From assembly GCA_002269645.1 (NCBI GenBank), contig NIVC01003141.1, positions 1 through 44,456 of the forward strand: a stretch of 44,456 bases of DNA. The letters run 5' to 3'. Below the pieces are notes generated by a model. The model saw only the letters and a program-made list of their open reading frames with translations. It was not told the origin of the DNA and did no database searches. This DNA comes from Macrostomum lignano. Lineage: Eukaryota. Shown in pieces: positions 1,169-43,402 of the stretch. Position 1 is the stretch's first letter, and every line of letters starts with the position of its first letter. The position numbers and the translations under genes were made by a program.

Positions 1169-1198
1169 CTGGCGGATAATAAGAGTTACACGCACTTG

Positions 1199-7831: not shown

Positions 7832-8035
7832 GGCGCCTTGGAGACTTGGCTCTGGAATGCGGTTTGGTCGAATTTAAACTGTTGGAATTCCACATTAAAA
7901 AAGTATCTGAACACAAATGCTACTCATAAAAAGCTAGATGGGGCACTTCATGGAAACGTCTGGTCACTTCCTAACCCTTCATAACCCTAACTTAAACCCT
8001 GACCCTGACCTAATGTCGCATTGTAAGTTATTCGC

Positions 8036-13700: not shown

Positions 13701-14191
13701 TGCATATTGAAGACATCGGAGTTGCAGTCACACTCATGTGGAGAAACTGGAGAATAGCAGTTTGAGTCTGTGTAGCACTTCACTCCAGATAGTGTGTCTA
13801 TGTAGAACTCCACGCGACTCGGAAAGAATTTTAACTTACCGAATGGCATGATGAGAAAGAGGGAAAGAGAGAGAGAGAGAGAAGTGTACATAGATTTTGG
13901 CTGTTCAGGTCATTTTCAAGGGTATATATGCATCTATTTGCGTTAGTGCAATGAAAAATAGATATGTACATTTCTCTTGTTCGCAAAAATACAGGTTTCG
14001 CACGCGAGAAGCCTGCAGTGTGAGTCACAGATTGCCCGGCTTTGGCTAATGCTAGAAAACTCACTCCAGAATATAGTGTACCCCATAAAACGCTTGCAAA
14101 AATTTGCTTCATTTCAGAAATTTTAAGCCAAAAAGTAAAGCTTGTTGACAAGCTTAAACTGGAAGTGAAACTTATAGCACGAACTTGAAGG

Positions 14192-17100
14192 ATGCTATTG
14201 TCGTTGTTTCTGCTCCACCTGTTTTCGAGTTCAATGATTACGGCTACTCCGGTACGTCCGTCATCTGCAGCGTCCAACCGAGTGACCGGCTGTCAGTTGC
14301 CTGGTTCAAAAGTTGGAAACTATTTTAGCAGCGCGATGAATTCCTCAGACACTTGGTTTAGCTTGGAGATTGGCTATGTACGACTCACGATGTTCTGCGT
14401 GTCGAATGAGTTTGGCGACGAAGTTCAATCTGGTATGTTGAACGAGCGTAGATCCTTTATAAACTCTGGATTGCACAGCAACCCAAACTTCATGTATTCA
14501 CTATCACAAATCATAAATTTCACCAACCCTAAACTTCACCAACCCTAAACTGCACCAACCCTAAACTGCACCAACCCTAAACTTCACCAACCCTAAACTT
14601 CACCAACCCTAAACTGCACCAACCCTAAACTGCACCAACCCTAAACTGCACCAACCCTAAACTTCACCAACCCTAAACTGCACCAACCCTAAACTTCAGC
14701 AACCCTAAACTGCACCAACCCTAAACTTCACCAACCCTAAACTGCACCAACCCTAAACTTCACCAACCCTAAACTGCACCAACCCTAAACTGCACCAACC
14801 CTAAACTGCACCAACCCTAAACTGCACCAACCCTAAACTTCAGCAACCCTAAAATGTTTAAACCTCATAGACTTCACTACTAACCTATTAGCTTAACAAT
14901 TCCTATAGATATCACCATTTCCTAAAGCTTAGATTTTTATCCAATAACAGGCACCGGGATATCAGCTGTCCTGAGTTCGAGTGGAGCATCCGGTCAAGTT
15001 TGGCCAGTTCCACCCAAAGTATTGCTAGCCAATGTCAAATTCGCATTAGCAATGCTACGAGGTCTGCTACCCCAGTCGGCTAAACATCCTGCTGTTGGTT
15101 CCCGACTCACTCAACTGTCTATGGCCGGCTTGGGGAACTTGCCAGCCAATGCCATTGCTCAGCTAGCAACAACTCTTACTAAGTTTGGCGACTTATTCAC
15201 GCTGAATATCAGTTCCGTTGGAGCGACCATTCTGCCATCCGAATTGCTGTCTTTGCCGCGACTCCACCGACTTAATGCCGGCGGAAATCCGTTGGACTGC
15301 GCGCTGATTGAAAATCGATGGCTTCGGCTGTTGACTCAATTGGGTTCCAGACTGGTGGAACCGGCGCTTCTGATGCGGCACTGCATAGAGGGTGAGCCTG
15401 TGGGGCTTTTAGATTTTGAGTAAGGAAGACCAGATTATCGACTGGGGTTGGGGTAGCAGAGTGGCTCAGTTGTTGACTGGGGTTGGGGTAGCAGAGTGGC
15501 TCAATTATTGGCTGGGGTTGGGGTAGCAGAGTGGCTCAATTATTGGCTGGGGTTGGGGTAGCAGAGTGGCTCAGTTATTGGCTGGGGTTGGGGTAGCAGA
15601 GTGGCTCAGTTATTGGCTGGGGTTGGGGTAGCAGAGTGGCTCAGTTATTGGCTGGGGTTGGGGTAGCAGAGTGGCTCAGTTGTTGGCTGGGGTTGGGGTA
15701 GCAGAGTGGCTCAGTTGTTGACTGGGGTTGGGGTAGCAGAGTGGCTCAGTTATTGGCTGGGGTTGGGGTAGCAGAGTGGCTCAATTATTGGCTGGGGTTG
15801 GGGTAGCAGAGTGGCTCAGTTATTGGCTGGGGTTGGGGTAGCAGAGTGGCTCAGTTATTGGCTGGGGTTGGGGTAGCAGAGTGGCTCAGTTATTGGCTGG
15901 GGTTGGGGTAGCAGAGTGGCTCAGTTATTGGCTCGGGTTGGGGTAGCAGAGTGGCTCAGTTATTGGCTCGGGTTGGGGTAGCAGAGTGGCTCAGTTGTTG
16001 ACTGGGGTTGGGGTAGCAGAGTGGCTCAGTTGTTGACTGGGGTTGGGGTAGCAGAGTGGCTCAGTTATTGGCTGGGGTTGGGGTAGCAGAGTGGCTCAAT
16101 TATTGGCTGGTGTTGGGGTAGCAGAGTGGCTCAGTTGTTGACTGGGGTTGGGGTAGCAGAGTGGCTCAGTTGTTGGCTGGGGTTGGGGTAGCAGAGTGGC
16201 TCAGTTATTGGCTGGGGTTGGGGTAGCAGAGTGGCTCAATTATTGACTGGGATAGAATTTGGCAGTGAAATTGTCGGTTTGTCTGAAAACTGTTTCAAGC
16301 CCTATTTATATGTCTCTCTTTATACAAATGAATACTTTCAATGCGTTTTCCTAACTTTATTACCGTCTGCTATTAATTATTTACCTTGTTGAAATTCCGT
16401 TGTGCACAGAAGATGCAACGAATAGCAGTGCAGCAGAATTATATCGCATGGACAGTCAATTAGCAACTAACATCACCGAATTAGAAGCTGTGGAAAACGA
16501 CTCCGCAGCGTCACACTACGTTGATTTGCACGGCGAAATTTCGGTACCCTGCAGTCGACGCTATTTTCGTCCCACCGACGATGGTATTTGGACGCCCGAC
16601 GCTAGCGTCGTTTGGCGCCGGCTAGACCAACCGGGAGCCAAGCTGCTGCTGGCCTCGATGGGCAATCTAAGCACCTATTTGGAGGCCAATTCTACAGCAC
16701 AACTATCCTCTTCTGCCAGAGTTTGGCACCCGGAACGGCATAGGAAACGATTCGCAACGCAAGTTGACATCGGCTCGGCAGCTCTAGGAGCACCGTTGAT
16801 GATTCGGGGAGCTCGACTGGCTGTGGCCGGCTTGTGGCGCTGCGAGCTGGCCAAGGCTGGCTTAGTGCTGGGCGTTCGGCACCGGATTGTACTGAGGCCG
16901 CCGTTTGAAACTTTGGAAATTGCATGCTACATTGTAGCCGCCTCTAGCAGCATGGCTATGGTGAGTCAAAACTGTTGTTTCGTTTTGCCTTAACGATGTT
17001 GTCCTGGCCTGGGCTGCGGACCCTCCGCAGCAGGCCCAGTATGCGTTCTCCCACTGACTAAGCAGCACCGATTGCTCCCCTCACTGACTCACCCGAGTCA

Positions 17101-17913: not shown

Positions 17914-19266
17914 CGAAAATATTGTCGATTCGGTGGAATATTCTAGATCGCTAGAATCCCATGTTATATGTAATCAATTTCTTTCCTAGAAAGTTTTGAA
18001 AAATACTTAGTGTAAATCAGGATAAAATTGGTATCTACAGATATTTTGGCGTTCAAACTCCTGTTGCTCTTAAGTATCCTTCCAGTATCCCTTGAGTACT
18101 ACACCTGCATGAATCTACTAGTTACACCTAAAAGAGTCGAATTTCCGTTTCAGGTACTATAAACTATAGAAGGTACATGCATGGATATCAGGCGATTAAA
18201 TCTGGCATGCAAAGCAAAAAAGCGGTTGCTATGAAAGGTTTATTAGAGAATTAATGATTTCAGAATTCTTTTCCCCGCACCATAAAATCTATACATTGTA
18301 TTAAGACGCCCTGTAATAAATACAATGTACGTAGACTTGTAGTTAGGTTACTCATTAGAAAACAATAGCTTGGGGATTTCTGTTTAGATGTTTTAACGCC
18401 ATCTAGCTTCAGCCAATGAGAGAGCAGTAAGGAGAGAGTTAGGCGCACGAAACTCAGCCTACTAGGGGGGGGGGGGGCAGGCCAGATCTACCTCAGCCAA
18501 TGAGAGAGCAGTAAAGGAGAGAAGGCAAAGTCACACACAAGCGGGCAAGCGGAAAGCCAAACTGGCCTGGATGTGGACTGAGGCGCCATCATTTTTCTCT
18601 CTTGTCCCTATGCACTCACTAAATTAATTAATTTTTATTAGCAATCTTCATCTGGAATTCATTAATTTTTGTAATAATTTGGATCTTGGACAGTTTGGAT
18701 AAAGATGCTATTTTTTGGGTTTGCTTGTAGAAAGCCGAAGGCGATTGCTGCATCTTTAAAAATGTTTAAATATTATAAACTTTAATCAATAATTATTTTA
18801 CGACAAAACCGATAATTTTGATACTAAGAAAAAGAGTAGATGATCACTTATTTGCAAGTGGCATCAGTTATCCTAGAATGTGTGATTACCATGGTCAGGA
18901 TCTTGTACCGGTGTACGCCGGAACGAAAATTGCTTCCGAAGCTCATGTACGCCAATGTACGCCAACGAACTTTTTATGGCACAAAAAATACGCCAAAATA
19001 AAAATACAAATTACGACCAATATTAACCGCTTGAAAATTTTTAACATTTAAAAAAATAATAAGTAAAAACTGGTAAATTTTTTTCTAAACCGTATAATAC
19101 TAGTTCATTTTAACTATATTTGTTTTACTTTTAACTTCTTAGGAGACTATGCCAAACGTAAACTTACGCCGGAATCTTCCAGCGTACATGTATACCACCC
19201 AGAGTCTGGTGTGATTACAGCGAAAAAGTTCGCTGTACTTTTAAACGCTGTTTTAAATGCAGTGTA

Positions 19267-20585
19267 CGAGAGGTGATCAAAAAGTTCTGCAAGTGACCTC
19301 ACAACTCTGCGTTACAGCAGCCGATGCGTCTAATCAGTGTCACTTTCCCTCAAAGTACTTTCCACCACAGTACTTTGTACCGTTGCATGCGTGTGAACCA
19401 TGTCTGAAAGCAGTCATGGTACTCAGAAGTTAGTATACCCTGTAGAGCTGAATGTACCACTTGGGCAAGGTCTTGTATGCGTGAAATGGCCTCCCAGAAA
19501 TGATGGATTTGATCCTCGGGAACAGCCAAAAGTTGCATGGTGCTAGGTCTGTAGAGTAGGATGGATGAGGCAGCAGCTGGACCCCCTGCTGCTCCAGGTA
19601 CGCCATGGTTGAAGCCGCCCTGTGCGGTGCCGCATTGTCATGGTGCAGCAGGAGTCGAGGTCCATGCCTGGTTCGCGCACGTTCCTGCCGCTCCTGCAGC
19701 ACGCCTGGCAGAGCAGTGTCTGTGTAGTACCTGGCAGTCACTGTGGCACCCGCTGGAAGGATGTTCACTGATACAACGCCCTGAGAGTTGAAAAAAATGG
19801 TGAATATCCGCTTCCGACTGCGGAATCCGGTCTTCAGCACCTCGGGCCTTGGCTCATCTTCTGCCAGCCAGACCACGTTGGACTGCTTATTCTTCATGGT
19901 AAATAAGTAGATCCAACATTCGCCTCCTGTGATGACATCCGACAGTCGTCGTGGGCCGTGAGGGTCAAAAATTTGCAGCCACAAGCGACAGATGCGCACC
20001 CTCTCTGCTTGCTGCTCCGGAGTGAGAAGATGGGGTACCCACCGAGTGCAGGTCTTTGTGTGGCCCAGTTGCTCATGCATAATGTTATGAGCACTTCCAT
20101 AGCTGACACCAAGCTCATAGGCAAGGAATCTCAGCGTAATGCTCCAATCCTCACGAATAATTGCATCGGCACGGGCCACGCCATCTTGGGTCACGGATGT
20201 CCAGGGTCGGCCAGACCTCGGTTCATCGTTGAAGCTGTCCCGGCCTTCCGAGAAATGGCGCGCAGCCAGCGGGCAACCGTGTCAAATGATGGAGCAGGGT
20301 CAGCTAAAACATTCACCAGATCGGTATGAATCTCAGTCGCTCGGCAGCCAAGTCGCATGCGCATAAATATGTAGAAGCGAACACTGTCTTTTGATGTTTT
20401 CATCAGCTACTGAAATCACATGGAAAATATATGGCTGTGAAATTTGACTAGAGCACATTGGGAAGCCAAAATTCATATAAATATAACAAACAGATATAGC
20501 CGCATATGTGTAAGTTTTTAGCTTTTGCCGATTTTATAACTAAAAGCTATAACAAGAGGTTGCAGAACTTTTTGATCACCCCTTG
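19267..20585 (-). mobile_element. Full-length mariner (Tc1/mariner, DD34D) transposon, 1319 bp
   Basis: 26-bp TIRs CGAGAGGTGATCAAAAAGTTCTGCAA / TTGCAGAACTTTTTGATCACCCCTTG (2 mismatches), TA duplicated at 19265-19266 and 20586-20587, and an internal transposase. Confidence 0.96.
19340..20403 (-). pseudogene. Inactivated mariner transposase
   Basis: HTH region, DEPRSGRP, WVPHLLT, ITG(D>G)ECW, HDNAAPH, HPSYSTDLAPC(D>N)FWLFP with 34 residues between the 2nd and 3rd catalytic positions. Frameshifts near 20260 (extra GC), ~19490 and ~19365. Confidence 0.92.
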
Positions 20586-21738
20586 TACCGTGCCTGCAGC
20601 TGTCACAGTGTAAATGCACTTTATTATAACAACCCGGAATGCTAATGTCAATTCTTCATATCACACGCTATCTGTGATAAATCGCTAATTTATTTACAAA
20701 TTCATTCTGTCGCTCTTTACGGTCGAAAAAAATAACATTTTTTATTCAATTGTTAATCTTAAATTGTTTTGCTGTCATTCGTAGAATAGGTTAAAAAAGC
20801 TATAAAAGCCTAGCCTAAAATAAAATTTATATTACATTAAAATAAGCTGCAACATTACTAACCCTGTGAGCAAAAACTAAATTTCCATACAGGATACGCG
20901 CAGTTGTGAGTGTAAATTCATTTTTAATTGTTAAATGTTAATATTTTTTATTTAGAGTAAATTATAGCGTGTAATTTGCATTGTTAGTTGGACCCAATTC
21001 TTTCAAGTTTTTGTGTAATTCTTTCAAATAATCATTTGTGCTTATTCATTTCGGCATGGTACATGTAACTAAATTAACGCGTATACACACATTTATAACT
21101 CTTGAAAATATAGAGAGACACGGGATATTTCCGGCTTTATTTATCGATTAGTTATCTAACGGCTACACCTCTCTTTACACATTCTTTGCCCCTTATTTAA
21201 AGAGATATAGTTATCTGACATAATATCAAGGTGACTTTAGTCCGCTAAACCTGAAAACGACGAAAAAATATGAATAAAAGAGTGATCATATTTCGATTAA
21301 AATCCAAGGCAATTGTTTTTTTATAAATTTTCTAAAAGTTACTTTTAACATGCTTTGTTGGCTACTCTAAGTACACGTCAGTTCCATTACGGTCTTAGAG
21401 TGCTTGCATGCAAACTAAAACTTTTAAAGTTAGGCTAACGCTACTAAATCACAAAGATTTAGACAATAGTGAGACTTAGAAATAGTATTTGTACGCCAAT
21501 TCCGTCTAATTTAATAAATTGTCGTCAAAAAGTTCAGAATCTGATTTGCCGATATGTATCGAAAATAATTTAATTCGTTACAAGTGAATATGTTAGTTAT
21601 CAGTTTACGATCTTACGTGTTGGCAACATACGAAAATATTTAGAGAGTAATATCTAGTAGTATAAGTGTTAAATTAGTACTATTATTAAGCCCAGTAAAA
21701 GCGTTTTTTTAATCAGTGAAATACGAAGCAAAAAAGAT

Positions 21739-24127: not shown

Positions 24128-24506
24128 ATGAGTGAGTGAGTGAGTGAGTAAGTGAGTGAGTGAGTGAGTGAGTGAGTGAGTGAGTGAGTGAGTGAGTGAG
24201 TGAGTGAGTGAGTGAGTGAGTGAGTGAGTGAGTGAGTGAGTGAGTGAGTGAGTGAGTGAGTGAGTGAGTGAGTGAGTGAGTGAGTGAGTGAGTGAGTGAG
24301 TGAGTGAGTGAGTGAGTGAGTGAGTGAGTGAGTGAGTGAGTGAGTGAGTGAGTGAGTGAGTGAGTCAGTCAGTCAGTCAGTCAGTCAGTCAGTCAGTCAG
24401 TCAGTCAGTCAGTCAGTCAGTCAGTCAGTCAGTCAGTCAGTCAGTCAGTCAATCAGTCAGTCAGTCAGTCAGTCAGTCAGTCAGTCAGTCAGTCAGTCAG
24501 TCAGTC
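24128..24506. repeat. Compound microsatellite (TGAG)~59 followed by (TCAG)~36
   Basis: Seen directly; the switch is at ~24364. Confidence 0.97.
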
Positions 24507-25690
24507 AACAATCCGTTGCCGCTGCGGTGAAGTTGGTGACTGCGAGTGACTTGTCGAGATCAGCGAAGACAGCTGGCTGCCGAAGGCATCCGGGCGCAGG
24601 CGGCAGCTGAGCTCCAGGTTCTCGGTGGACAGGGCCGCGGCCTCGCCAGCAGCACCTCTGGCTCTGTTGATGTCGATGTCGTAGGGCCGGTAGCCACGGC
24701 AGCTGGGCGCGGATGAGCCGCAGATAATGCGACTTCTGGCGGCCGCTGGTTGCCGTCCGGAGCAGTGAGCCAGCAGGGCTCTACGAAACAGCCTGGTGGT
24801 GCTCACGTACACCAGGAAGTTCACCAGACTGTCGAGCTGGGTCAGCAAATTCACAGAGCGCACCAGAACGGAATTCTTCAGCCGGATGTAGGCGAACACG
24901 GCGGTCGGGAGCTCCAGGGCGGCGAACGCGAAGGCCAACAGGATGACAACGCGAGCCGCGTGCTTGTCGCGACGGGCTAGCGCGGAGGGACGCGTCAACT
25001 TGTGCGAGCAGCCTGCGCGGCCTTGGCCTTGGCCGCCTCCAGCAGCTCCCGAGCACTGCTGCGGACGCTTCCTCAGTCGATCAGCGATGAGCAACCGGAG
25101 ACGAGCACCAATAGGAACGGTACCGAGGTCTGCAGAGTGTAGAACACGGTGGCGTACTTGGTGACCAGGTGCGACTCAGTGCAGGCCGAGTCCAACTCGC
25201 TAATGATGGCCAGCGGCAGGATGGGAGCGGCCAACAGGCCGAAGGTCAGCATTGATCGGCGACCTTTCAAGATGGCCTCGCCAGTTTTAGCGGATATCGG
25301 ACGAATGACGGCGTTGAGACGCGAGATGGCGATCACTACGACAGTCCAGTTGCGCATGGTCAGAAACGCTCGCAGGCAGCAGCCGATGACCAGCCGGGAC
25401 GCCCCGTGTTCGACTCCGCAAGTCAGGCGAATCATTCTTCTTGCACCTAATCCGGCCAGTTCGAAGCAGACGTTGAGTCCGATGCTAAAGTTGAACAGGA
25501 GCTCGAATACGCTCAGGTAGCTAAGCAGATGACGAACTGTGGCGCTCATCTCGCGACTGCCAACTGTCTGGAAGAGGAATAGAGCGTAGCCGCTCTGGAC
25601 CAGGTTCAGTGCCCCCAGTCCAAGAAATGCACCGTTGAACAGCGAGCTGACAACGGCATCATGCGGAGAGTTTGAAGAGTTTGTTGCCAT
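24501..25690 (-). CDS. Intronless rhodopsin-class (class A) orphan/peptide-receptor-like GPCR, ~396 aa, with one apparent 1-bp frameshift at ~25093
   Basis: ORF 25690-25073 gives TM1-TM5 (TM3 [19 protein letters not shown]); ORF 25094-24501 gives TM6-TM7 ([18 protein letters not shown]; [10 protein letters not shown]…FRRAL). N-terminal N-glycosylation sequon NSS. Restoring one base in GGTTG joins both ORFs. Confidence 0.85.
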
Positions 25691-26822
25691 CGGGTTTGAC
25701 TTTTGATTGATTTATTCCTATAAACTGCAGTCTTGAATTGGAATGCGGCCAGTTTCAACTTATGTAGGGCTGGGATTGAGGACTCAAATACAGACAGCCT
25801 TGCATCCGTTTGGCCTCACCATTCACTGTTAGTTTGATCCAGTTATTGGGTTTGAGCTGCTGGGCCAATCGTAATTGGCTCGATCGCATCTGTGAGCCGA
25901 CTCACCTAGACAAGGAAGACAATTATGCTGGCTACGTGACTACTGATTACTCGTAGTAAGGCTCACATTTCAGCTTAACAGTGCCGTAGAGGCAGGCTAG
26001 TGGGCTGAATGGCGTGCCGGTTTAAACGAGTAGCACAGTTGCTTTTTTGATTTTCAAATGGGCCGCGTTTAAAAGCATCAATAAAAGGCATCCAACGGGC
26101 GAGCCTGTTTTGGGTGTGGTGTCACGGAATGATCTCTTCCTTGCTCGACCAAGGAAAATGATCACGGAATAATAGTTGAAGGATGTCGCATCGCAATGCC
26201 GCAATGCCTACGACATCGAAATCGTGTGGCAAACAGCGCTGATGCAATTGTGCACATTCTGAGGAGTCCTGAGCAGATACTGTAGACCAAGAACCACTAG
26301 AAGTTACGGTTGTATCAGAACGTAACACTTTCTTGTTTGCATTTCAGCTGAACTTTAAGTATATGATAATAGTATATTACGGCGCCCTCTGATTTTCCCA
26401 TTAACGCCCTTAAAGCATGGGTATTACTATTATTGTTCCATGGACATTTGTGTCCTTGACAAAGTGGGACAGGAAATACGAGTAGAAAGGGGGTGTGGGG
26501 GCGAAGCCATCACCAAAAGCCATAGACAAAACACGAAATAAGAATTTTTGCTGTAGTACAGTACTAACTTAAGAAGAGAAGAGAATAGAGTATACTTGTA
26601 TACTGTATAGAGAATACGAGCGTAGAATAGAATAGAGAATTGAAACTTATCGCACCACAGACCACAGAATATACTGTGCCATACTGTATATTCTGTGCCA
26701 CAGACTGCATACGGTTTGACTAAGACAAAACTAGATCTAGAAGCATGATCAACTATAGCAGTATCGCAGAGAGCGTGATAAGTGGATTGAATGCTGATGA
26801 ATTGGAATTTGTAACTCATTAA

Positions 26823-27068: not shown

Positions 27069-28382
27069 GTAAGTTTAACTGCTGAATTGATTAAATTGAC
27101 TCTATTGATTGAATTAAATTGACAATTGTTGTTTTGTTTTTGTTGCATTTATGTTCTAGTTTTCACATGTTTCATGCTGAGTCGTTCTACAAATAAAGCG
27201 GTCGTGTAACTGCCCACTAATTTGCATTAAAGTAAGTTTGACATAGACAATTTGTTCGATATTTCTTTCCTGCAAGCGTTTCCTCCTGCTTTCCTGCCAG
27301 TTTATGGCATTAAAAGGCAAGAATAAGTGTCCAGCGGGCACAAAGGTCATGGTACAATCGCCATTAAATAAGCATTCTTTGGTCAGAACGTCCGAGGCTG
27401 CATTTACGCTCGTAATGGTCCCGAGGCGAGCGAAGCGAGCCGAGGACCAATGAGTGGGGCCAAGGACATTCTGACCAGGACAGCTTAATTTAAGGGCTAT
27501 TATTTTATATGAAATCATATCGCTTTTTTGGAATATTCCACCTGACAGAGCCCCCGCTGGGGGTGTGAAGCCCCCGCTGGGGGTGTGAAGCCGCCACAAT
27601 TGAACCATAAACTTTTATGTAGAATTTCTCAAAACAGCTTAGAATTCTCATACAGTCTTAAATCTTTCTGGCGGGTCAAAGACAATGTTTTAGTAGGGAT
27701 TTTCTTAAGACAGTCGGCAAGTGAAAGAATGTCTAAAATGGAGAGAAGCGAGTACGACAAAATTAGTCTAACTGCTTTAGCGAGGATTCGTGCTGTTCTA
27801 TTTGCTATGTATGGCGCTGAGGAAGTCGTTGAATTCTTTGATTTCTTCAGCTCATTTGAGAATTCACCTACAGCTGATGCGGTGCGTCCATCTTTACCTT
27901 CGACAAGCCGTGTGGGTGAGCTGCTTGATTCGACCGACTTGGAGTGCCAGGATGTCTGAGAATCATCGGTCCCTCTGCCAAGGTGGTTGATGGTCTTGGA
28001 TTGCGTCCAGTGCTTCACAAGGCATCTCTGGTCCAGAAGAAAACCTGAGCAACGGTCCCACCGGTGAGCTTGTCGCGTCTGATGAGTCTTGTGAGTCCTC
28101 TAATGCACACGGAGTGAAGTCTATTGTCATTGGCAGTCCTATAAAATTGAAATCCTGTTGAGTGCGTGCAGACTTTTTGAAGCTAGCATGGGAAACTATT
28201 GAGAAGAAGCATGAGTTATGCGTTATTCGTAGTCTGTTTTTCTTGTTTTCTATTTGCGACATCAGATACACATTAATAGTTTATTAATCTATGGTACAAC
28301 TAGTCTTTTCCCGAGACCATTAAATCATTTAATGGGCTCCGTTTGAAGACCATTAAATGATATAGAAGTAGTTGTGCCATAG

Positions 28383-29388
28383 TGTAGTGATCCGCTAGTT
28401 GAGGTTAGGCGTCCCACTTTGTCAGCAGTCTCCCTCGCCCTCGCCCTGGGCTGCTGTCTGCCGCTGGTCAGCTTCCCGCCCCCTTTGCCCGTCTGTTGCT
28501 GTCCTTGGCCTGTTCTGCCCTTCTGCGTCTCCGTTCTCAGCCCCCAGTCTCTCGACTTTGGGTTGTTTCTGTTTCGCTTCCGTCCAGTTTTTCCCTGTCT
28601 TGTGAGCTAGTCACATGACAGTTCTTGCGTTCTTTGAGTCCTAAAGTGCAGTAAACATGTTTACTGCACTTGCTGGCCCTGTTTACCGGGGAGTCACATG
28701 CTTCGGTACCCTCCCTTCTCTAAGGAGAGGAGTGACTCATGTTGCTAAAAATAGCAACTGAGTCACAGCCGTGTGCACTCTGCCGGGGGACCCCAAGTGA
28801 CGTCAGTTCTAAAAATAGAACGAGTCACGGGGTCCGTGCGCAAAGGGACTCTGCCCAGAGGCCATGAGTGACGTCAGTTCTAGAAATAGAACAAGTCACG
28901 AGATCTTGTGCAATGGGTCATAGGTGGATCCCGCGCTATAAATAGGAGCACTCTCCCCCTTGTTTCCGTCAAGGAGTTCTGTGCTAGCCGTCTTTCTGTC
29001 CAACCTTGAGTTCTACGTGACTGAGTCCCGAGTGTCTGAGTCTTTGCGTACATTGAATCTATTCCTATTGGTCCGACTGAGACCCGACCAAGCCAACCCA
29101 AGCCTACGAGAGGCTAACTTAGCCCTCCCTTTACCATCCAAGCCCGGCAGGTACTGCTGACGAGACGCCTAGTACGTTGAGCTGCAATTCTGCACTTTGT
29201 GCTGTGTTCGTTGACTTCGTTATTTCGTTCCGACGGGAAGCTCACCTCCCCGAAGGCCGAGACCTGAAGGAACTGGTGGCAGCATTACCTACGCTACTGA
29301 GAGTTGAGAGAACTTCCCACTGAAGAGGCTCGAGTCTTAAGGTAATCTTAAGTGCCTAAACCGGGAAGAAAACCCCATAAGCATTTCA
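28383..29388 (+). mobile_element. Long terminal repeat (~1006 bp, TG…CA) of an LTR retrotransposon; 5' LTR with the internal region lost
   Basis: Starts TGTAGTGA and ends CATTTCA, 1 nt before a primer-binding site. TATA at 28937. No second LTR and no gag/pol in the window. The 5' boundary is less certain than the 3' boundary. Confidence 0.8.
28646..28945 (+). promoter_or_regulatory. LTR U3 enhancer/promoter: forkhead palindrome, three AP-1/CRE-MEF2 palindromic modules, TATA box
   Basis: GTGCAGTAAACA|TGTTTACTGCAC (28646-28669); modules at 28732-28766, 28797-28828 and 28868-28899; CTATAAATAG at 28936-28945. Confidence 0.65.
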
Positions 29389-29389
29389 C

Positions 29390-29412
29390 TGGTGGCAGCG
29401 GTGGGATTCGAA
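29390..29412 (+). other. Primer-binding site complementary to the 3' end of tRNA-Leu
   Basis: TGGTGGCAGCGGTGGGATTCGAA is the reverse complement of TTCGAATCCCACCGCTGCCA-CCA, the 3' end of eukaryotic tRNA-Leu(AAG/TAG) including CCA. Confidence 0.92.
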
Positions 29413-29516
29413 GACCTACCAGGCCACCCCGAGAAAACCAAAAGTACTTCACATAGACTATTGATTCCTTGCTGCACGAAGGCGCCCATTAAACGTCAAT
29501 TAAGTATATGTTATTC

Positions 29517-29816
29517 CCATGGAGGAAAGAATAGAATGGAGTGCTAATCTGAGCAAGTTATTTTTATCTCGCTCGATTTTCGCTTTTAACATCCCTTTAC
29601 TATTGGCTGAAAGCATATTTTGATGCGAGCTCGAACTATGCTGGGCCAGACCTTTTAGAGGGGAACGAAAGCGAAAACGAGACGAAAAATACTTTGTCTC
29701 TGGCAGTCACGAGCCAATAGGAAAGAACGGGGGGAAAGGGATGTTAAAAGCGAAAATCGAGCGAGATAAAAATAACGTGCTCAGATTAGCACTCCATTCT
29801 ATTCTTTCCTCCATGG
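29517..29816. mobile_element. 300-bp MITE with ~82-bp TIRs beginning CCATGGAGGAAAGAATAG
   Basis: Arms 29517-29598 and 29735-29816 are reverse complements with 1 mismatch, plus inner CTATTGGCT/AGCCAATAG. Superfamily not assigned. Confidence 0.85.
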
Positions 29817-30699
29817 TTATTACGTGATGGAGTGGTTTCGAGTCGTCATGCGATGATGAATGAGTTGGAGTTGAATTTGCAACTGAATAAAGCGACACCT
29901 GAAAATATTTTAATGACGAAAGTGCAGTTCTTCGTTCGTTCTTTGTTTCTTACACGTTATTTCGTTCAAAAAGAAATTCCAAAGTAAAAATAAATTTCTT
30001 TCGCATCAAATAAATGCTTTTCTTAGTCTATGACCGGGCCTAACTGGGTAATAAATAAGCAATCGGATTTTATATGCTAATATGTCTGGATCAGTTGCAC
30101 ATAAAATATACTTTTTCGCCACGCTTTGTGAGTTTTATTTCTCTTTTAAGATGACACAAAATTTATTTACGAGCTACATGTATCTACATGTGGGACATGT
30201 GGGTTAAACTTCTGTGGCACAAAGTTAGTGCATGTTTCTTTTAAGCAGTTGAATAGAATGCTTTTTTGAAGACAACAGTCGCCAAATACGTAAAGGGCGG
30301 GCTTTCAAATAGCTTCTAGCGGTCCATGAGTCACCGATAGAGGCTTTTTGCAGCCGGGAGAAGCCTTTAAAAATGAACTGATAAATTTTTTCTAATTTTA
30401 GAATCAAACGAAAAATAGTAAAGTGACTCGGCTTTTCATAGAAACAATGCTTATTGACGGTTTTTTATTTTACTTTAAAAAATTAATTAATAATAGTTCT
30501 GCTGATCATTAAGCCTCTGCTTGGAATAAATCTGACTCAATGCAGTCCACAGTTAATATCTTATCTATTAAGTTTAGCACTAGACCCTCTTCGAAAATAT
30601 TTATACCTTTCTTGAGAAGCACTTACAGCTCTTGGACTGGGCTTTCTGTCGCGCATCAGAATTTCCTTTGAGTTGACGAGAGAGAAGGCGGGACAGTTC

Positions 30700-31039: not shown

Positions 31040-31267
31040 AGAATGCGTACCAAGATCCCAAGAATCTTGAGGAGCGATAAATTGACTGTTGTAGCGCTGC
31101 GTGTTTCAAGTAGTCTGGTGGCTTGATCTTAAAAATGTCTTCACGTTTAGATTATCACTGATACGACGGAAATGTCCCAGATACAACAGTTTCACAGATA
31201 CTTCAGAGCCACCGATACATCAATGGGACAAAATACGCTAATTTCACAGGCCCTCAAGTGTCATAGG

Positions 31268-31470
31268 TGATGCGTCAGTTTCACAGATGATGCGTCAGTG
31301 TCAAAGATACGTCAGTGTCACAGATGATACACAGTCACAGATGATAAATCAGTCTCACAGATATTCATACGTCAGTGTCACAGATGATACATCAGTGTCA
31401 CAGATGATACATCAGTGTCACAGATGATAAGTCAGTGTCAGTTGATAAGCCAGTGCCAATGTCACAGATC
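31268..31470. repeat. Degenerate ~20-bp tandem repeat (CAGTGTCACAGATGATACAT), ~10 copies
   Basis: Seen directly. Confidence 0.85.
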
Positions 31471-32270: not shown

Positions 32271-32291
32271 TTCACTTTCTCACCCAGAGAT

Positions 32292-32305
32292 ATCACCATA
32301 GCAAC
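32292..32305. promoter_or_regulatory. Candidate RFX X-box
   Basis: ATCACCATAGCAAC matches GTYNCYATRGYAAC at 13 of 14 positions, ~1 kb upstream of the first predicted NWD exon. Confidence 0.35.
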
Positions 32306-33381
32306 CAGCTTCGTTCTCGACGGCGCTCGGGGTGGGTTGGTGCCAAGGGCTAATCGCTGTCGCAAATGGAAGCGGGTGCGTGCAAATGTAAATAGGCGAA
32401 TTCTCTGACTTACTGTTCTATCATTCCTTTCATTAGTGGCCTTCCAATCGGAGTTGAGAGAAGAGATTGAAAGAAATAGTAAAAACAAGGAAAAGTTGGG
32501 GGAGGGCCGTTGAGGTGCGCGCTGCGTTTTAACAGTCACCCCCTACTGAGAGACTGCTCATTACGCCTAGAGCTGCTTTCGTCTCTTTTAATTTTCCATC
32601 CCTGTCTATTTCTTTTGTAGTTTGTCCGTCTATTTTAGACTCTTCCATAGTTTCTAGCTCGCATAAACTAGCAACGACCAGCCTCAGAGAGTCAAGAGAC
32701 AGTTGAATTAGTGAGAGATCTAGATTTATCTTTATAGGTCGCTTCTGAATAAGGCGTCGTTGCGCCTCGCTCCCACTCAACTCTTTTCGAAGCACAAACG
32801 TTCTTAAATAAAAGAGAAGGCCGAAAGAATCACGTGCAAACTAGCGAAAAGGGGGGCTGACAGGATTGTCTTTGAAGCAGAAATCGTTTCGGCAGTCAAA
32901 GGCAGTCAAAGCGTGTCGCTTCAGCAATGAACTTCAATCAAGACGCTGTGAGTTGCACGCGTAGGCGGATAGTTCTGCGAGTCATTTTATCTAGAAAAAG
33001 TATTGTACTTTTCCATGATTGCAAATTCGTGACGTCTGGCCCTCTCGAAGGGCATAGAAATCCTCTCTAGAGTGTCTTAGACCTCTAGTAGCTCGTACAA
33101 GATGGCAAGCCTCTCTGAAAACCCTCTGAAGATTGTTAGAGGTTTCAAGCTGAAAATGGGCTACCCTCTGAAAGACTCTGCCAAGAAACTTTGAGGGGTA
33201 ATACGCTTACAGTAAACGTGTAGCAAATGATGTATTATTTAAATTATCCTACACACATTAGTGCATGCCTGAAACAATGTCACTTTAGGATGAGGCTACC
33301 GCGGCTGCGGCAAAACAATCGCCAGGCCGGAAGTGCTTCGGCTACAGGGCTATCTTTCCCAAGCTGCTAGGCGATCAAGTT

Positions 33382-36300
33382 ATGACTGGCAGAATGGATG
33401 GTCTGGTAAGTTTAGAGTGGCTTCTTAGTCTGTAGAATAGTGGTTTCAGCTAATACTGAATTCGTGCTGGATGCACTTTACAAAAAACTGCAGGATCACT
33501 ACGGTCATTGGAAACTGTTTCGCCAGAGTCGAGCAATGGGAACGGAGCGGCAACAGTTGGTTATTAGTCACATGAAAGTAAGTTGTAAATATTAACGTTA
33601 TTGTGTTATACTCTTGTTTACTTACATGCATGCTGTACTTGTACTTTTTCCAACTGATCGCACCTCCCAATTTTCACCAGCGTGGCCTGCGCCATCGCCT
33701 CGATCGTCGGTTCGCGGCTATCCAGGAGAGCAGCGAGGCCAGTCGTGGCGCTATCAGCGACGGCCCAACGCCCGACGGCATTGCAGGTGGCGGCGGCGGT
33801 GGCGGCGGTGGCGGCGGTGGCGGTGATGTACTTTTAAACGGAAGACTAGCTGCGGAAGGTACAAATGCATCAGCCTCGGAGCCTCTGGCATCAGCTCGCG
33901 CTGCCGAGGTTACGCCACGTCCGAGGCCAGCAGACGAGCACGAGTCGCTAGAGTCCGACAGGTCCACCGACTGTTTCAGCGCTACTCGCAGTACGGCGTA
34001 CAGCGCTCCAACTCCACACTCAGCACAGCGGGTGTCATCCCGGTCGACTTTCTTCATCCGGAAACTGAGTCTACGCCGCCGGCCGCCGGACCGGCCACGT
34101 TGGCGGCCGATCCGCAACAGGACGAAAAAGTCAAATCGCTGCTGGACAAGGAGCTGACCTTCGTGAACACGTTTGCCGTCGCTTCCGAACTGGAAGAAGT
34201 CCTCAGCAGGCAGTCGTCCTCCATGACGGCCCTACCACCGATCGGGGCTCGAACTCGGGACGACGCCAAGACTCTGCTACTGTATGTGACGTCCAGCTTA
34301 GGTGATTTTGATGCCGAGCGAGCGGCTATGGCCGAGCATCTTGTGCCACATCTGCGGGACACTGCGCGCAGCTTTGGTCTGGACTTTCGTCTGATTGATC
34401 CGCATTTTGGCTGCCGGTTTCACGCCTGCGACAACCACGAAGATATGAAAATCTGTCAGGAGGCTCTTGCCAAGACGAAGCTGTATAAGGATCGGCTAAA
34501 TCATGTGGTATGTCGGATGCGTCTTTCTAGAGAATTAACTTTAATGCACAGTATTTCGATCGAAACTGGTAACTTTTCGAATGCATGTAGTCGGATACCG
34601 GTGTGTTTGATCAAAAGGGATGTCAGCTTAAACTGCGGAATAGAAATTAAAGTCGGCAAGAACTAGCAAACACTGGAAACGCCAGGAAGGGAGGTTGATG
34701 GTGCATGTCTTGGCGTTTCTAGTCGACTGCTCTGACAAGTTAGTCCGCTTTGGTCCAGAGTTTTGCTTCGGGCTTCTTCGGATAGGTTGACATTCCCTTT
34801 GATTAGTGAAGCAATTTATATTATTGAGTACTTGCCTATGTATATAGTTAGTGCATAGCTTAAAGCAAGTGATAAATCAAGTAATATCGGTTTCCCTCTC
34901 CTCTCAGATCCTACTCGAGACAAATTCGGCAAGCCGAGCAGCCCGCCGACCATTGATCGAGCCGAATTCGAACTAATCGTCCGGGCGAATACAACTCGGC
35001 CTACCAGAAGCTGCAGCAACTGCGAGTGAGCGTCAAAAAAGCTGGAAGAGATGGAGAAGAGCGCAAAGTCCAGGAAGAAAAAGCGCAACAGAGCCGGCGC
35101 AGACGATGATGATACGGATGATGATTTTGAAGACGCCTCAACTCGTCGAAACAACCGGCGGACAAGCGTCAACAGGCGCCGGAGCAGCGTGAAGCCGAAG
35201 CCGAAGGCAAGCCTCACATCGGTAGCGAAGACGGTGGGCCGGGCGATGCTTATTCGCAAGTCTCAATTGGAGGACAACATACGCAGCATAGAGCCCTACT
35301 TGCCTAGCGAAAACTTCCTGGATACCTGGTATTACCTGGATAGCAGTCGCGTGCCAGTAGTTTACCGGCTAGCGCAGGTCAGCAGCGTTCTGCCGGAATT
35401 TTCCGCTTACAGAATGCAGGTTCAGGACCAGTGGCAGCGGACGGACCAGCAACTGTTGGCCACGCTCACCTTCTGCTCGCGTCGACTAGTGAAAAATGAC
35501 GTCATGCCCGAGTCTGAGAGCACCATCCTTGCCCTAAACAAGACGTCCGTGCTGGAGCAAGAGTTGCGCCAGACCGTGCTTCGATCGCGTGGCAGCCACT
35601 CGGACACTCTGATGTTTGTGCGAACTTTTGACAACTTGAAAGATCAAGTAGGCCAGCCACTCGCGGCCTTATATACGGACATTGAGCCGGGACGTGACGA
35701 GGTCGACTTAGAGGCTGCGCACGCTTTTGTTACGGTCAAACGGGATCTGGAATTGATGGTGTGTCAATGAACCGAGCGTTTTACTATGGTTGTAAACAAT
35801 TTTAAACCAGGCAGATTCTATCACTACCAAATTCAGTTTAGCGTTCTGCTTTATTATAAAAAACTTGCTGAAAATTTCACCCTCAGGTGCCAGAAGACAT
35901 CATCCACCGGGCTCAGATCAGTTGGATCCCAGAGGGCGGCGTCAATCCCGAGCGGTCGCGCATTCACGAGAATCACGTGAAAAAAATCTGCGCCCAGATT
36001 ATCCGCGTCCTAGAGCCGCAGATTCGTCAAATTGGACTGGATCTGGAGAGGCACCAGACTGAGCAGCAGAGTCTGATGCACACTATTCAGGAGAATGAGA
36101 ACTACTGCCTGCAACAGTAATTATATTCATTGCTTTATTTACTTAAAGCAAGTTCTCCGAATAGAGCATATGGTTCAGAGCATGTATCAGGGCATATGAA
36201 CTCAACTAACCAACCGCTCTTTACCCGATGCGCAATAAAACTACGCTTTGGTGGAGGTGATTAATTAGACAAGTGCAGCATGCAGAACTAAGTAAGAAAG

Positions 36301-39300
36301 GGAAAAGTATGCAGCACTCTTATTCGGTGAACTGTGGTACAAACTCAAGGCCGATTAATAAAGGCCATGCATCCATAGTACATTTTTCTGATCTGCCCGG
36401 TCTCACTCTATTCATAGTTATGAAAGACGTGTAGCCAAAACAAACTAGCTTTGATGCGTTTGTATTACTTACAGTAGCTTCTAAGTATTAAGCTGTGATT
36501 CTTTTTTCAATTTTCTCTCAGTGCGCTGAATGCTACGGCCGCAAGACCATGCTAGCCAAGATGAAGGCGTACCTGAACTCGGACAGCATGATCCCCATGG
36601 TGGTGCACGGACCGTCGGGTAGTGGCAAGACCACTTTGATGGCGAAATGCTTCTCAAAATTGAAAGACTGGCTGCCGGAGAGTTCGACTTGTGTTGTTCG
36701 CGTTGTTGGAGTGTCCAGCAGGTCTGGGAACGTCCGCTACCTGTTGGGAAGCATCTGCCGAGAATTGCTGTTAAAGTGGAAAGAACAAGGCGACCCACCG
36801 CAGGTAACGAGGCTTTATTAATTTTTATTTTAATTGACTCTGACATGGATTCGGGGTTTCTTAGGGTCCTTAAGCCTGGTAGTTGTTAAGTATGTTACCT
36901 CCAGTATGTTACCTCCAGGTGGTGTTACCTCCATGACGTGGGTTACCTCCAGGTGACGTGGGTTACCTCCAGGTGACGTGGGTTACCTCCAGGTGACGTG
37001 GGTTACTCCAGGTGACGTGGGTTACCTCCAGGTGACGTGGGTTACCTCCAGGTGACGTGGGTTACATCCAGGTGACGTGGGTTACCTCCAGGTGATGTGG
37101 GTTACCTCCAGGTGATGTGGGTTACCTCCAGGTGATGTGGGTTACCTCCAGGTGATGTGGGTTACCTCCAGGTGATGTGGGTTACCTCCAGGAAACATAT
37201 TCCCTTATTCTAGGTAGAGCGAGTTTATTTAGCTCAAACTAGCCAAGTGAGCTATAGTCTAATGAGATGTAGATGTCAAATAAAAACCTACACATAATGC
37301 CTAGTACATATTTGATATTTCACTAATTCGTTTATAAGTGACTGGTTTTTAAATAGGTTCTATGTGCGCATCTATCTAAAACCTTTTTCACCAGCTAACA
37401 CTTAAACTTGTCTGCGTCTTTCTATGGGGCTGATTTGAAATTTCAATATAATCTGGAATTTTATTTTCCAGAAACGTTTCGCGAGCAATCCAGAGGAGAT
37501 GCTGGTACAGAGTGTTTCAAATTTCAAATTTATTTATGCGTTTTTAACCTACTACAATGATCAACTTCGAATGCTATCAGAATTAATTAGCAACTTTATT
37601 CTTGTAATTGTAAATTCCGGATTGACTATCTAATCAAGTTAATTACAAAATTTGACCAGATTTGCACACATTCATCTCACTAACCTGTTTGAATAAGAAC
37701 TATGACAACAAGTATATATTTATCTATGCTTGCCGTAATCATAAAGATATTATTCCAGACCCGAAAATTTGTTAATTGTTTAATGACAACATTTTTACGA
37801 CTTTCGATTCAAATTCTCAACAGTTGTGATTTACAATTGGGAACATTGTCAGTTTTCCTGATGAAAATAAAAACACGTTTGAGGGCTATATGTATAATAC
37901 TCTAACTGTTTCAAATGTTTGCAACAGTTGACTGCAGCAGCAAAGTCAATCAAAACCGTCTCTCCTACACGCAGGATTTCGCTGGCCTGGTCAACGAGTT
38001 CACTGCTCGACTTCAACAGGCCTCTCGCGACCGTCCGCTTGTCATCTTGCTGGACTCCCTGGGCCAGCTCACCGAAGAGTACCAAGGTCGTCGGTGCCAC
38101 TGGCTGCCGAAGGTGTTGCCGAAATACGTCAAGGTGATCGCATCAACGGTTGGCGACGAACGGGTCGGCGTGCTGGGCCAGCTGAAGAGCATGTACTCAG
38201 ACGCCTCCCCGGATCACTTCATGGAGATGGAGCAGCTGACGGTCGAGGAAGCTGAGAAGATTTTGAGTTCGTGGCTAGCTAAAGAAGGCAAAACACTGAC
38301 CACACCGCAGCTTGAGCATGTACTGTCGGCTTTTAATTGCGTGCCGTTGCCTCTTCAGCTGCGACTCAGCTTCCACGAATCCTTAAACTGGCCGCCCAGC
38401 TTCTTGCCCCGAGAATTTGCAGCCAAGACTCTGAAACAGTCGGTGACATTCTACTTGAGCCGACTGGAGTCTGGATTCGGCGATTTGCTTGTTAAACGAG
38501 CGCTCGGATACCTGACGGCCGCCAAGAACGGCTTGACAGAAGCAGAACTACTCGACATTTTGTCGCTCGACGACCACGTGATGGACGTGCTCAACTTTCA
38601 GTTTCATCTGCCTGTGCGTCGCTGCCCCCCGATCGCTTGGCTGCGCCTGCGAAACGCACTCGGTGAATTCTTGACAGAAAAATCCGTAGACAACTGTGTC
38701 ACTATCGTCTGGGCATTCAACATGTTCAATGAAGCAGCCGCGGAGCGCTACTTGAACCAGAAGGAAAAGCCGGTGCTGCACAAGGCTCTCGCCGAATACT
38801 TCGACGGAATGTGGGCCGGCAACAAGCGAAAGCCGCACCTGGGCAACGAGGCCGGCTCCAACCGCTTTGTCAGCTCTCAGCCATACTACTTCGAGCGTCA
38901 AGAGCCGCCGGGTTTCGTCTGCAACGACCGAAAACTTGCCGAGCTGCCTTGGCACCTGAGAGAGTCGCAGCAGTTTGAATCGTTGAAACAAAAGTGCCTG
39001 TGCAACTTTGATTTCATTCTGGCCAAAATGTTGGCTTCGTCGGTGCGACATGTGTTGGATTTGTACGAATCTGTGCTAAGCGCCGAGCCTCGTGACAAAG
39101 ACCTACGACTGATATCCAACTCTTTGTACTTGTCTCGAGCCGAGCTGGAGCTAGACCCGAAGCAACTAGCGTCACAGCTTCTTGGACGCATCACGGATGT
39201 GCTCAAAGCTGATCGGCCAAAGGCTCCAGCAGATCCGAAGAAGTACCCATTTGTGCACGCCCTCTTTTATCGCGCTCGGCGCAACAACGTTCCCACTCTT

Positions 39301-41712
39301 GTCCCATCAAAGTCGTGCATGACAACGCCTAGCGAGATTGTCCTTGATCTCCTGCAGGGACACCGACTGCCAATCACGGCTGTCTGCATCAGCGAAGATG
39401 GAACCACGGGATTCACTAGCTCGCAGGAGGACACAATTAAAGTGTGGGACTTGACGAATAGTAGAGTCGTAAGCACTATTGAAGGCTCTGGCAGTCAGGT
39501 ACTGTCCATGACGCTTGGCCGTCAGGAATCGGTGTTGATCACATCGGAGTTAACATGCGTAAAGGTGTACGCAGTGAAGATAGGCTGTCTGCTTTTCACC
39601 ATTCCAGTTCAGGATGATCCTTGCTCTGTTGTCGTCAATGGAGACACAAACAACTTGGTTTGCTTTCACCAGGGTATCTGCGTGATGCGCACCTGGAATT
39701 TGGAGCGCTTAACTAAGGTCTGCGACAAGACGTTAACAGAGACAGGACTGCACCAGGATCGCACCGTGGTTGTCTCTACCCGATGCAACGCAGATTTAGT
39801 TCTGTACGGCCTTAGAGGTTCCAATTTCGCTCGTGTTGTCCACTGCCGCAGCGGACAGGACGTATTAAAGCTGTCCTGTCTTGACAAAGCGTCCCTAGTG
39901 ACGGCTGTGCAGACTAGTCGCGAGTATTACATTGTAGCTTGCCAGGCTACCGACTTGCACACTCGCGTGCACATGTTCTTCTTGGAGCTATTTGACACCG
40001 GAAAAGGCAAAAGCGTCCGACGCATCAAGGGTTGTTCATCTGACAGTGTAGTCGATGAGCTAATGCTAACTAACATTCAACAGCACGTGATCTCCTTGAA
40101 TCCTATGCGAGACAAGAATATGACTGATATTGTGGCATGGAACCTGGAGACCGAGGAGCACAAACACTTTACTCGTCACCCAGGAATTTCGTCAATTGGT
40201 GCTGTTTACGATTTTCGTCGTGTGATCACGGGCTCGCTGGCCGAGAACGCCCTTCGCATGTGGAACGTGCAGCAGAACATGCAATCCGCGCCGCAAAAGA
40301 CCGAAAGCCTCGTAAATCTGGCTGATATAGTTATCGACGCAGGTAACAACCGGTATGCACTGACAAAACTTTCCGACAATAGCGTAATTCACGCTTGGAG
40401 TCTCAGCGCGAATAAATTCTCCGGCAAAGTTGTTAAATCTGCCAAAAGCATCGCTGGGCCCAATGACATGGTGCTGATGGACAGGCACTTTGTCATTGTT
40501 CTAGCAAGACCAGGTTTCTCGCCTAAGGTGCCGAATGCAAAGTTCGTGTACCAGACACTAACTATCTTCGATATTCAAAAGCAAAAATTCACTGTCAATT
40601 TAAACAACGTACTCATTGTACCGTGCGCCTACGAGGAATATCACGTGATTCATGGCAACCAGCTGTTGTGCATAAATGAGTTTCACACCAACTTTTTGGT
40701 GTACAGCCTAGAGTCTGGTGAAATTATTCGCCGAATTAAGCCAGAATTCTCGTTTGACCCTAACAAGAAGCGGCCGTCCGCCCTGCTCGAGGGTAGCGTG
40801 CTGCAGCGCGAAAACGAAATGTTTGAAGAGTTCATCAACAGTCGAAAGCAGACGGTTTTCATGACACCCTGGGAGCGCAGAAACGAGAGCAAATCGGCAA
40901 AAACTCGACGCTATCGAAGCGAGTGGGAGGAGAAAAAGCAACGAGCTGACGAGCTTGAGCAGGAGAAAGGAAACGGCATCGCGGACTTCCTAATTAGCAA
41001 GGACCAGTCCACCGTTGTGTCCAGCTTTTTTGCTCACCACATCTGCGTATTCAACTTGTCCAACGGGACCCAGCAAAGCGTGCTGGAGCATCCCAACGCC
41101 CTGCTGCACTTGTTTACAGCGTCGCTTAGTCCCAACGGGCGCTACCTCGCTCATACTATCTACAACGAGCAGCAGGAAATGAGCCAGCTGTGCCTCTGGG
41201 ACTGTCGCACCGGAAAAGTGAAGAAGTCCTTCAACGAGGGCGGCGTCGGGGCCGTAGCTATCAACAGCGACGCTAGCATTCTCGTCTACGGGACCGACAG
41301 AGGCGAGCTGCGGGTACGCGACTGCCGACGCAGTCCAGCCAAAGTCCGTGTGGCCAAGACCAGCGCCTGTGTGAACTTCCAGCAGAGCAGTCACCGAAAC
41401 TTCATCCAGTTGTTCCGCGACGATAAATGGGCTTTGATCTACGCCAGGAGCCTGTCAGTGTGGAACATGCAGAGCCTGGAAATGTTGAGCATCCTGACAC
41501 CCGATCAGCCGCTGCACTCGATTCGGCTGGCACTGAACGACCAGCTGATTGTGTTCAGCTCCAAGGACTCAAACGATCCGATCATTCTGAAGATGCTGTC
41601 GGCCAATTCAAAGCGACCACAACGAGTCGGCGCGCGCAAGTTCGGCGAGGCGGACTCGACAGATTCGAGCGAGGACGAAGACATGCCGGTAGAAAGAAGC
41701 GCTGACGACTGA
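33382..41712 (+). CDS. NWD1/NWD2-like STAND protein (DUF4062-like domain, NACHT P-loop, WD40 repeats), ~1980 aa; exons 33289(ATG 33382)-33405, 33681-34507, 34908-35758, 35887-36117, 36522-36803, 37975-41712
   Basis: DUF4062-like LLYVTSSLGDFDAER…LIDPHFG; L..WY.LD..VP; TSVLEQEL; Walker A GPSGSGKT; Walker B region LVILLDSLGQL; GYLTAAKNGLTEAELLDILSLDD; RKLAELPWHL; WD40 repeats (LLQGHRLPITAVCISEDG…IKVWDL). The 3.7-kb last exon is intact. Exons 2-4 need 1-bp corrections (~33968, 34917, 34985, ~35028-35040, 36117). The 5' end is less certain. Confidence 0.9.
36893..37192. repeat. 20-bp minisatellite (GTTACCTCCAGGTGA(C/T)GTGG), ~15 copies, in the intron after the Walker A exon
   Basis: Seen directly. 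Confidence 0.95.

Positions 41713-42813: not shown

Positions 42814-43402
<589 letters not shown>

Follow-up and report, generated by a model that had tools for sequence, protein, structure and literature searches.

The window analysed here, a DNA stretch of 44,456 bp, carries a solo LTR whose U3 region holds a cluster of paired bZIP (AP-1 or CRE) and MEF2 sites together with forkhead sites and a TATA box, and these conserved U3 blocks probably represent the retrotransposon's own signal-responsive enhancer-promoter. The clustered consensus sites are under selective constraint across the family, as is expected of a signal-responsive MEF2/bZIP enhancer. The factors named throughout are those predicted to bind, judged from consensus matches.

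Structure of the solo LTR and its motifs

The solo LTR spans 1069 bp on the forward strand (28383-29451), has TG...CA ends, and is directly bordered by the forward-strand target-site duplication CATAG on its 5' side (28378-28382) and its 3' side (29452-29456), both read directly; it is the single LTR that the first-pass annotation had described as an orphan. It was inserted inside another repeat (window 27500-28382 and 29452-29500), LTR-free copies of which contain CATAG only once. Target-site duplications of 4 bp were seen by eye at other family copies, versus 5 bp at this one. An LTR-free joint in the DNA-like runs X15 and X17 may come from a paralogue and was used for the duplication alone, and an empty-site search with the left flank was rejected as a test of the locus, because this flank is itself part of the repeat and has about 35 copies. 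Directly to the right of the solo LTR lies a MITE-like element (29510-29823) with 89-bp inverted arms that are 96% complementary; it is missing from the C5170 homeolog of the neighbouring NWD locus.

The motif cluster falls within the U3 of this LTR, and direct reading located all of the motifs named in the first-pass annotation. Module 1 (28732-28766) consists of AP-1 (28733-39), five spacer bases, MEF2 (28745-54), four spacer bases and a second AP-1 (28759-65); its letters are exactly as annotated, and the arms of its near-palindrome are separated by a one-base bulge. Module 2 (28797-28828) is formed by CRE (28798-805), three spacer bases, MEF2 (28809-18) and a degenerate right half-site. 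Module 3 (28868-28899) has the same CRE-N3-MEF2 order, and the annotated change in its MEF2 core is present, but it is not otherwise identical to module 2, since its right half-site reads AAGTCAC instead of GAGTCAC. The change, at 28883, breaks the MEF2 consensus and is private to the window copy (0/52 other copies; the twin locus also differs), and it reflects either mutation or assembly error.

Upstream of the modules, two forkhead cores (28651-57 and 28658-64) sit within a palindrome (28644-28671) that is perfect over 28 bp rather than the 24 bp given earlier, and a third core, TGTTTAC, is found on the reverse strand at 28680-28686, where it had been annotated. The TATA box, CTATAAATAG, occupies 28936-28945 on the forward strand and also fits the MEF2 consensus; transcription would be expected to start near 28966-28972. 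Two further sites were absent from the first-pass annotation, including an E-box-like GTCACATGAC at 28610-28619, which we take to resemble MiT/TFE-USF sites, and a second E-box-like site, TCAC(A/G)TG, at 28694-28700.

When 28646-28946 was subjected to 2000 dinucleotide shuffles, the observed numbers of MEF2 sites (three), CRE sites (two), forkhead sites (three) and bZIP-N3..5-MEF2 composites (three) were each reached in 0/2000 shuffles, and the two AP-1 sites were reached in 3/2000. No such composite is present in the rest of the window outside this interval.

Retrotransposon family

The genome searched comprised 764 Mb in 5269 contigs. A DNA search with the solo LTR gave 1000 candidates, 40 of which were scored, all being 83-100% identical to it. 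Family LTRs are paired 8-9.5 kb apart (about 9.3 kb) on several contigs, constituting full-length elements, and the window LTR is 84-89% identical to these paired LTRs. The full-length relatives encode, in Pfam order, zf-CCHC (the gag zinc knuckle), RVT_1, RT_RNaseH, Integrase_H2C2 and rve, and possess a tRNA-Leu primer-binding site and a purine-rich run ahead of the 3' LTRs; the family belongs to the Ty3/gypsy LTR retrotransposons. In six full-length copies the two LTRs show only 0-4 differences per ~1000 positions, and the family has therefore moved recently. A 14-base U5 anchor had 463 matches in the genome versus 2 for its control, and with five of the first 30 loci being chance matches this corresponds to several hundred dispersed LTR copies. 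The copy count called for by the first-pass annotation thus yields hundreds of family LTRs scattered over the genome.

The RT-RNaseH of L033 (on C1545) is 82% identical at the protein level to those of L035, L041, L042, L087 and L090, and the LTRs are closely similar, indicating that one LTR type serves at least two internal regions. The pol frames of the family have a long tail after the integrase with no Pfam match.

Conservation of the motifs across the family

Genome-wide, the pattern CRE-N3-MEF2 has 813 matches versus 0 for a reversed-pattern control, and AP-1-N4-MEF2 has 590 versus 3 for its control; 39 of the 40 CRE-MEF2 loci fetched are held by family LTRs. A motif-blind sample was drawn through the U5 anchor (30 loci, minus five without family homology and one without U3). 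All 24 U3-bearing copies in this sample possess the bZIP-MEF2 composite, with a fully intact AP-1-MEF2-AP-1 arrangement in 15, a TATA box that matches MEF2 in 19, and the E-box-like core of 28610-28619 in 18.

Constraint was assessed on a broader set, for which 110 loci were screened for the LTR span. The full span was lacking in 21 (including the highly diverged L053, L060, L061 and L068), removal of duplicates and 3' LTRs left 55 LTRs, two could not be anchored, and the window copy served as reference, leaving 52 copies that are 62-96% identical to it in the 5' part. Shared variants, defined as those common to at least three copies, occur at 1/71 motif positions versus 83/206 neighbouring positions (p=4e-12; middle module excluded), and at 1/35 versus 83/206 (p=2e-6) when only forkhead and AP-1 sites are counted, which were used in neither picking nor anchoring (for roughly half of the copies, CRE/MEF2 had guided the picking or anchoring); because the 52 copies share kinship, these p-values overstate independence and are indicative only. 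No shared variant falls in the forkhead palindrome cores (0/14 positions), the third forkhead core (0/7) or the TATA core. The E-box-like site at 28610-28619 has a shared variant at 1/10 positions, and variation in that at 28694-28700 is confined to the central A/G; both are as constrained as the motifs known from the first-pass annotation. The modules are thus kept among the LTR copies, as the enhancer reading of that annotation supposes.

Spacer letters vary, and module spacing is fixed at 3-5 bases. The enhancer block is tandemly duplicated with a period of 64-84 bp, giving two modules per LTR in 17 copies, three in 33 and four in 3, with one module only in two very diverged copies. The TATA box doubles as a MEF2 site in the window copy, as annotated, but this is a subfamily trait and not lineage-wide, since CTATAAATAG is found in 42/53 copies and the TATA/MEF2 overlap is missing from older subfamilies. 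The palindromy of the modules, likewise annotated correctly for the window copy, is also a subfamily trait.

This palindromy bears on a different explanation, in which the palindromes act as DNA or RNA hairpins (in recombination, template switching or RNA structure) and the motifs are a by-product. A perfect 28-bp palindrome would suit such a role, as would the inner arms of module 1, which are fully complementary in 39/52 copies and whose innermost pair has both members altered in older subfamilies. However, the remaining 13/52 copies break the inner arms and keep the AP-1/MEF2 cores and spacing, from which it follows that the symmetry is mostly that of the binding sites themselves. MEF2 has a flanking-base preference that the innermost pair likewise matches, the CRE-type modules are asymmetric outside their cores, and the full core of the forkhead palindrome is retained in only 15/24 U5-picked copies, whereas 22/24 have some forkhead core. 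We consider the hairpin explanation highly improbable.

Changes found in single copies number 0.41 per site in the motifs and 0.62 per site at the other invariant positions, a difference that is not significant (p=0.12-0.15). Constraint on shared variants without significant depletion of single-copy changes points to selection on the replicating element, in which sites would be kept because the copies that have them replicate; there is no clear sign of host selection on the motifs after insertion.

Relationship to the neighbouring NWD gene

An NWD1/2-like gene (NACHT/WD40-type) is located at 32277-41712 on the forward strand, with Pfam HTH_NWD1 and WD40 matches in 37906-41709. Its first RNA-covered exon (32277-32947) is spliced to 33289 with GT-AG joints in 5/6 RNA-like runs. 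These runs are contigs guessed to be RNA, with no level or strand information; they are probably RNA, because spliced joints occur in the NWD gene, and run depth was taken neither as expression nor as copy number. Five assembled copies of the 5' end of the gene were recovered, the homeologs having been found via the NWD exon, and two of them (the window and its C206 twin) contain the LTR; C227 and C1184 end too near the gene to show the site. One extra base at window 33968 in 4/4 runs is likely to reflect an indel introduced into an NWD exon during assembly, and a 20-bp minisatellite array at 31257 is longer in other NWD homeologs.

According to the first-pass annotation, the LTR is co-oriented with the NWD gene and lies ~4 kb upstream of it. 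The orientation is right, but the modules lie ~3.4 kb, and the end of the LTR 2.8 kb, upstream of the first RNA-covered exon. Such a position, together with nearly all sites being intact in the window copy and with two of the assembled locus copies containing the LTR, could mean that the solo LTR was co-opted as an enhancer or promoter of the NWD gene and that the family seeded a host wound-response network; in the flatworm Echinococcus, solo LTRs are described as minor alternative promoters in the accessible part of PMC4558846. However, the C5170 homeolog aligns with the window up to 28086 and again from 29822, with no LTR and no composite, and its diagnostic alleles are found in the spliced NWD contig of X6 (7/7) and in the X4 contig (6/6 listed), which indicates that presence of the LTR makes no difference to the first exon of the NWD gene. 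The C206 twin has the LTR, yet there it is separated from the gene by an additional 11.1 kb of DNA, most of which consists of tandem repeats. The LTR-NWD chimeric reads anticipated by the first-pass annotation did not appear, as no LTR-NWD joint, and hence no LTR-initiated transcript spliced into the NWD gene, was found in the six RNA-like runs, whose contigs drop rare forms. In X1, the cover of the interval between LTR and gene is low, and some of it bears alleles of the homeolog that lacks the LTR; some runs have no cover in this interval, which was not counted as evidence. The private MEF2 change of the window copy and the single-copy changes, which are not significantly rarer in motifs, also argue against co-option.

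As the LTR-free homeolog and its spliced contigs indicate, the LTR appears to be neither fixed at the locus nor needed for expression, and the role at the NWD gene implied by the first-pass annotation found no support; co-option is very unlikely. The NWD gene appears not to need the LTR, which may have a small or wound-specific effect on it, and the solo LTR at this locus is most likely a passenger whose decay has already started.

A second gypsy family with the same block

Twenty AP-1-MEF2 loci were chosen for unusual spacers, of which 11 proved to be LTRs of the family described above, six belonged to a second group according to blastn, one resembled the second group by eye, and two belonged to neither. 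The second group represents a further gypsy family; its paired LTRs are young, and its RT-RNaseH is 55-59% identical to that of the first. Its LTR keeps MEF2-N4-AP-1 and aligns with the LTRs of the first family weakly and around the module only (E 0.001-0.008), except for one locus that holds an unrelated part of it. Common ancestry or exchange seems a more likely source of the block in both families than convergence. In the second family the composite sits ~80 bp downstream of the top-ranking TATA-like word, a position that does not match a simple upstream enhancer. An extra open frame of 377 aa with no Pfam match was also observed in the second family (L155:7902-9032).

Among 60 hand-picked loci, the composite was found outside the two LTR families only at L058 (in a coding context), at L132, which gave no gene assignment, and at L140, and the search of these loci for composite-bearing host promoters did not locate host immediate-early promoters.

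Proposed function and host factors

AP-1 and CRE sites are classically signal-activated. Together with MEF2, AP-1/CREB factors are established end points of MAPK/calcium signalling, as is also described in the accessible parts of PMC2628930 and PMC4374383. If the U3 blocks act as a signal-responsive enhancer-promoter, MEF2 would sit 12-13 bp from an AP-1/CREB-type dimer bound next to it, and a rise in kinase or calcium signalling would cause the bound MEF2/bZIP factors to switch on the TATA promoter. Wounding and osmotic, oxidative or starvation stress are candidate stimuli, and the upstream forkhead and E-box sites may provide a second, nutrient-stress input.

The host is a flatworm, as the first-pass annotation had supposed, and possesses several MEF2 genes. 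There are 16 MADS-box matches in the genome; the 12 that were read (L179-L190) include at least four distinct exons with MADS and MEF2 domains, which suggests that the host MEF2 family is expanded. A domain search for the Jun family gave no match, with the control equally silent.

The same sites might instead drive steady, tissue-restricted expression in muscle, neurons or other MEF2-rich cells, with no induction involved. MEF2 is the most invariant motif, with three to five sites per LTR, and the family LTR sequence was covered in 6/6 RNA-like runs from five studies, both of which are in line with steady expression. However, the MEF2 site of every module is paired at fixed spacing with an AP-1 or CRE site of the signal-activated kind, and confinement to terminal somatic cells alone would not explain heritable young copies. 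We therefore regard steady expression as rather unlikely and favour the signal-responsive enhancer-promoter.

A more far-reaching version of the signal-responsive reading, which we put forward tentatively and with more doubt than conviction, is that a gypsy lineage of a regenerating flatworm took over the immediate-early wound switch (MEF2 and AP-1/CREB, plus nutrient-stress input through forkhead/E-box sites), adjusts it via the number of blocks, shares its core block with a distant gypsy family, and fires in the wound-activated stem cells that rebuild the gonads, so that the ~500 LTRs would form a stock of injury-responsive enhancers. If this were true, the lineage would have a post-embryonic route into the germ line. 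Wound induction of the LTR would provide a compact injury-responsive promoter for flatworm transgenesis, and would also test the idea, raised in the accessible part of PMC12801592, of regeneration as a route for retrotransposons into the rebuilt germ line. The MEF2/bZIP sites follow an unusually clean grammar for which selection is demonstrable, and the NWD homeologs with and without the LTR constitute a natural control inside the genome.

Comparison with known systems

LTRs with host stress-factor sites are already well known, including heat-shock LTRs in Macrostomum lignano. By analogy of layout, the closest known arrangement is the U3 of the HTLV-1 LTR, where a MEF2 site beside the CRE repeats binds MEF2 and supports LTR activation, according to the accessible part of PMC4374383. 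As far as that source describes, both have tandem CRE-bearing repeats, adjoining MEF2 and a MEF2-like site overlapping the TATA box (PMC4374383). HTLV-1, however, is a retrovirus of humans and depends on its own Tax protein, and the available text gives it a single, imperfect MEF2 site (7/10), whereas the flatworm LTR has a perfect MEF2 core per repeat at fixed AP-1/CRE spacing. The flatworm LTR also adds forkhead and E-box sites, and the likeness is one of layout, with no homology claimed.

Retroviral tandem U3 enhancer repeats and the SV40 72-bp repeat vary in copy number among isolates. The ~64-84 bp block of the flatworm LTR, with its variable copy number, resembles them in architecture only, as they carry sites for other factors. 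The TATA element of the Xenopus MyoDa promoter was reportedly found by Leibham in 1994 to be bindable by both TFIID and MEF2; that promoter belongs to a host muscle gene, whereas the overlap in the flatworm lineage belongs to a retrotransposon LTR and does not extend to older subfamilies. The EBV Zp promoter was considered as another analogue and dropped, the literature search being without result.

AP-1 and MEF2 sites are reportedly similarly close to each other in the c-jun promoter. There, p38/MAPK induction is mediated jointly by MEF2 sites and sites of the AP-1 type, according to the part of PMC2628930 that was accessible. The flatworm LTR shares this AP-1/ATF and MEF2 pairing, but c-jun is a single-copy host promoter (PMC2628930).

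In M. lignano, which is likely the same host, LTRs with captured heat-shock elements (HSEs) have been proven with reporters, and an LTR-reporter assay already works in this species, as described in the accessible portion of PMC12801592. Those LTRs are likewise Ty3/gypsy with stress-factor sites in U3, but the signal described there differs, with HSEs in place of MEF2/bZIP sites (PMC12801592). Canonical HSEs number zero in the window LTR and were found in 0/55 family LTRs, and the MEF2 core and CRE word are absent from the supplements of PMC12801592, which indicates that the present family is not among the six HSE families in so far as that source presents them. Candidate clades for the family are those named in PMC12801592, Gmr1/Osvaldo, Mdg3/Micropia, Mag and CsRN1; sequences in its supplements cover the HSE families alone. 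A literature search mostly of material outside subscription journals and bioRxiv supplements turned up no description of MEF2/AP-1 modules in LTRs of flatworms.

Primer-site copies in the LTR ends

The U5 of the window LTR contains a short forward-strand complement of the tRNA-Leu 3' end (29274-29283, 10/10 complementary), which is present in most family copies examined and is the older of the primer-like sequences, being kept in nearly all subfamilies. At the LTR end, a 63-bp unit (29389-29451, forward strand) combines a copy of the primer-binding site (29390-29412) with a second LTR terminus behind it, and this copy is complementary at 23/23 positions to the genome's tRNA-Leu(AAG/TAG) with CCA added. 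Units of ~64 bp occur 0-2 times in tandem per family LTR (L006, L007, L009, L090 and others), and it seems that the LTR grows by repeatedly capturing its primer site, a process of which the literature search found no clear description. By eye, the ~64-bp unit also resembles the complement of a tRNA D-arm. Two to four stacked, decayed units of LTR end plus primer site were observed in the second gypsy family (L153, L125), so stacking extends beyond one family.

In most of the sampled young copies (L006, L007, L017, L018, L019, L027 and L087), the primer site before gag does not fully match the tRNA-Leu complement; L008, L015 and L090 are the few copies with fewer mismatches. These mismatches fit heteroduplex repair after tRNA copying. 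Silencing of retrotransposons by tRNA fragments has also been proposed, and the mismatches possibly reflect escape from it.

Other features of the window

A mariner-type element is located at window 19259-20593, with a Transposase_1 match (19433-20281) between 34-bp inverted repeats. Two overlapping frames on the reverse strand at 24501-25711 look membrane-receptor-like by eye and are presumably GPCR-like, with no Pfam match at E 0.01; they are on the opposite side of the LTR from the NWD gene and face away. Minisatellite arrays with periods of 4-40 bp occupy window 1-16250, 24129-24505, 31257-31440, 36908-37192 and 42814-43402.
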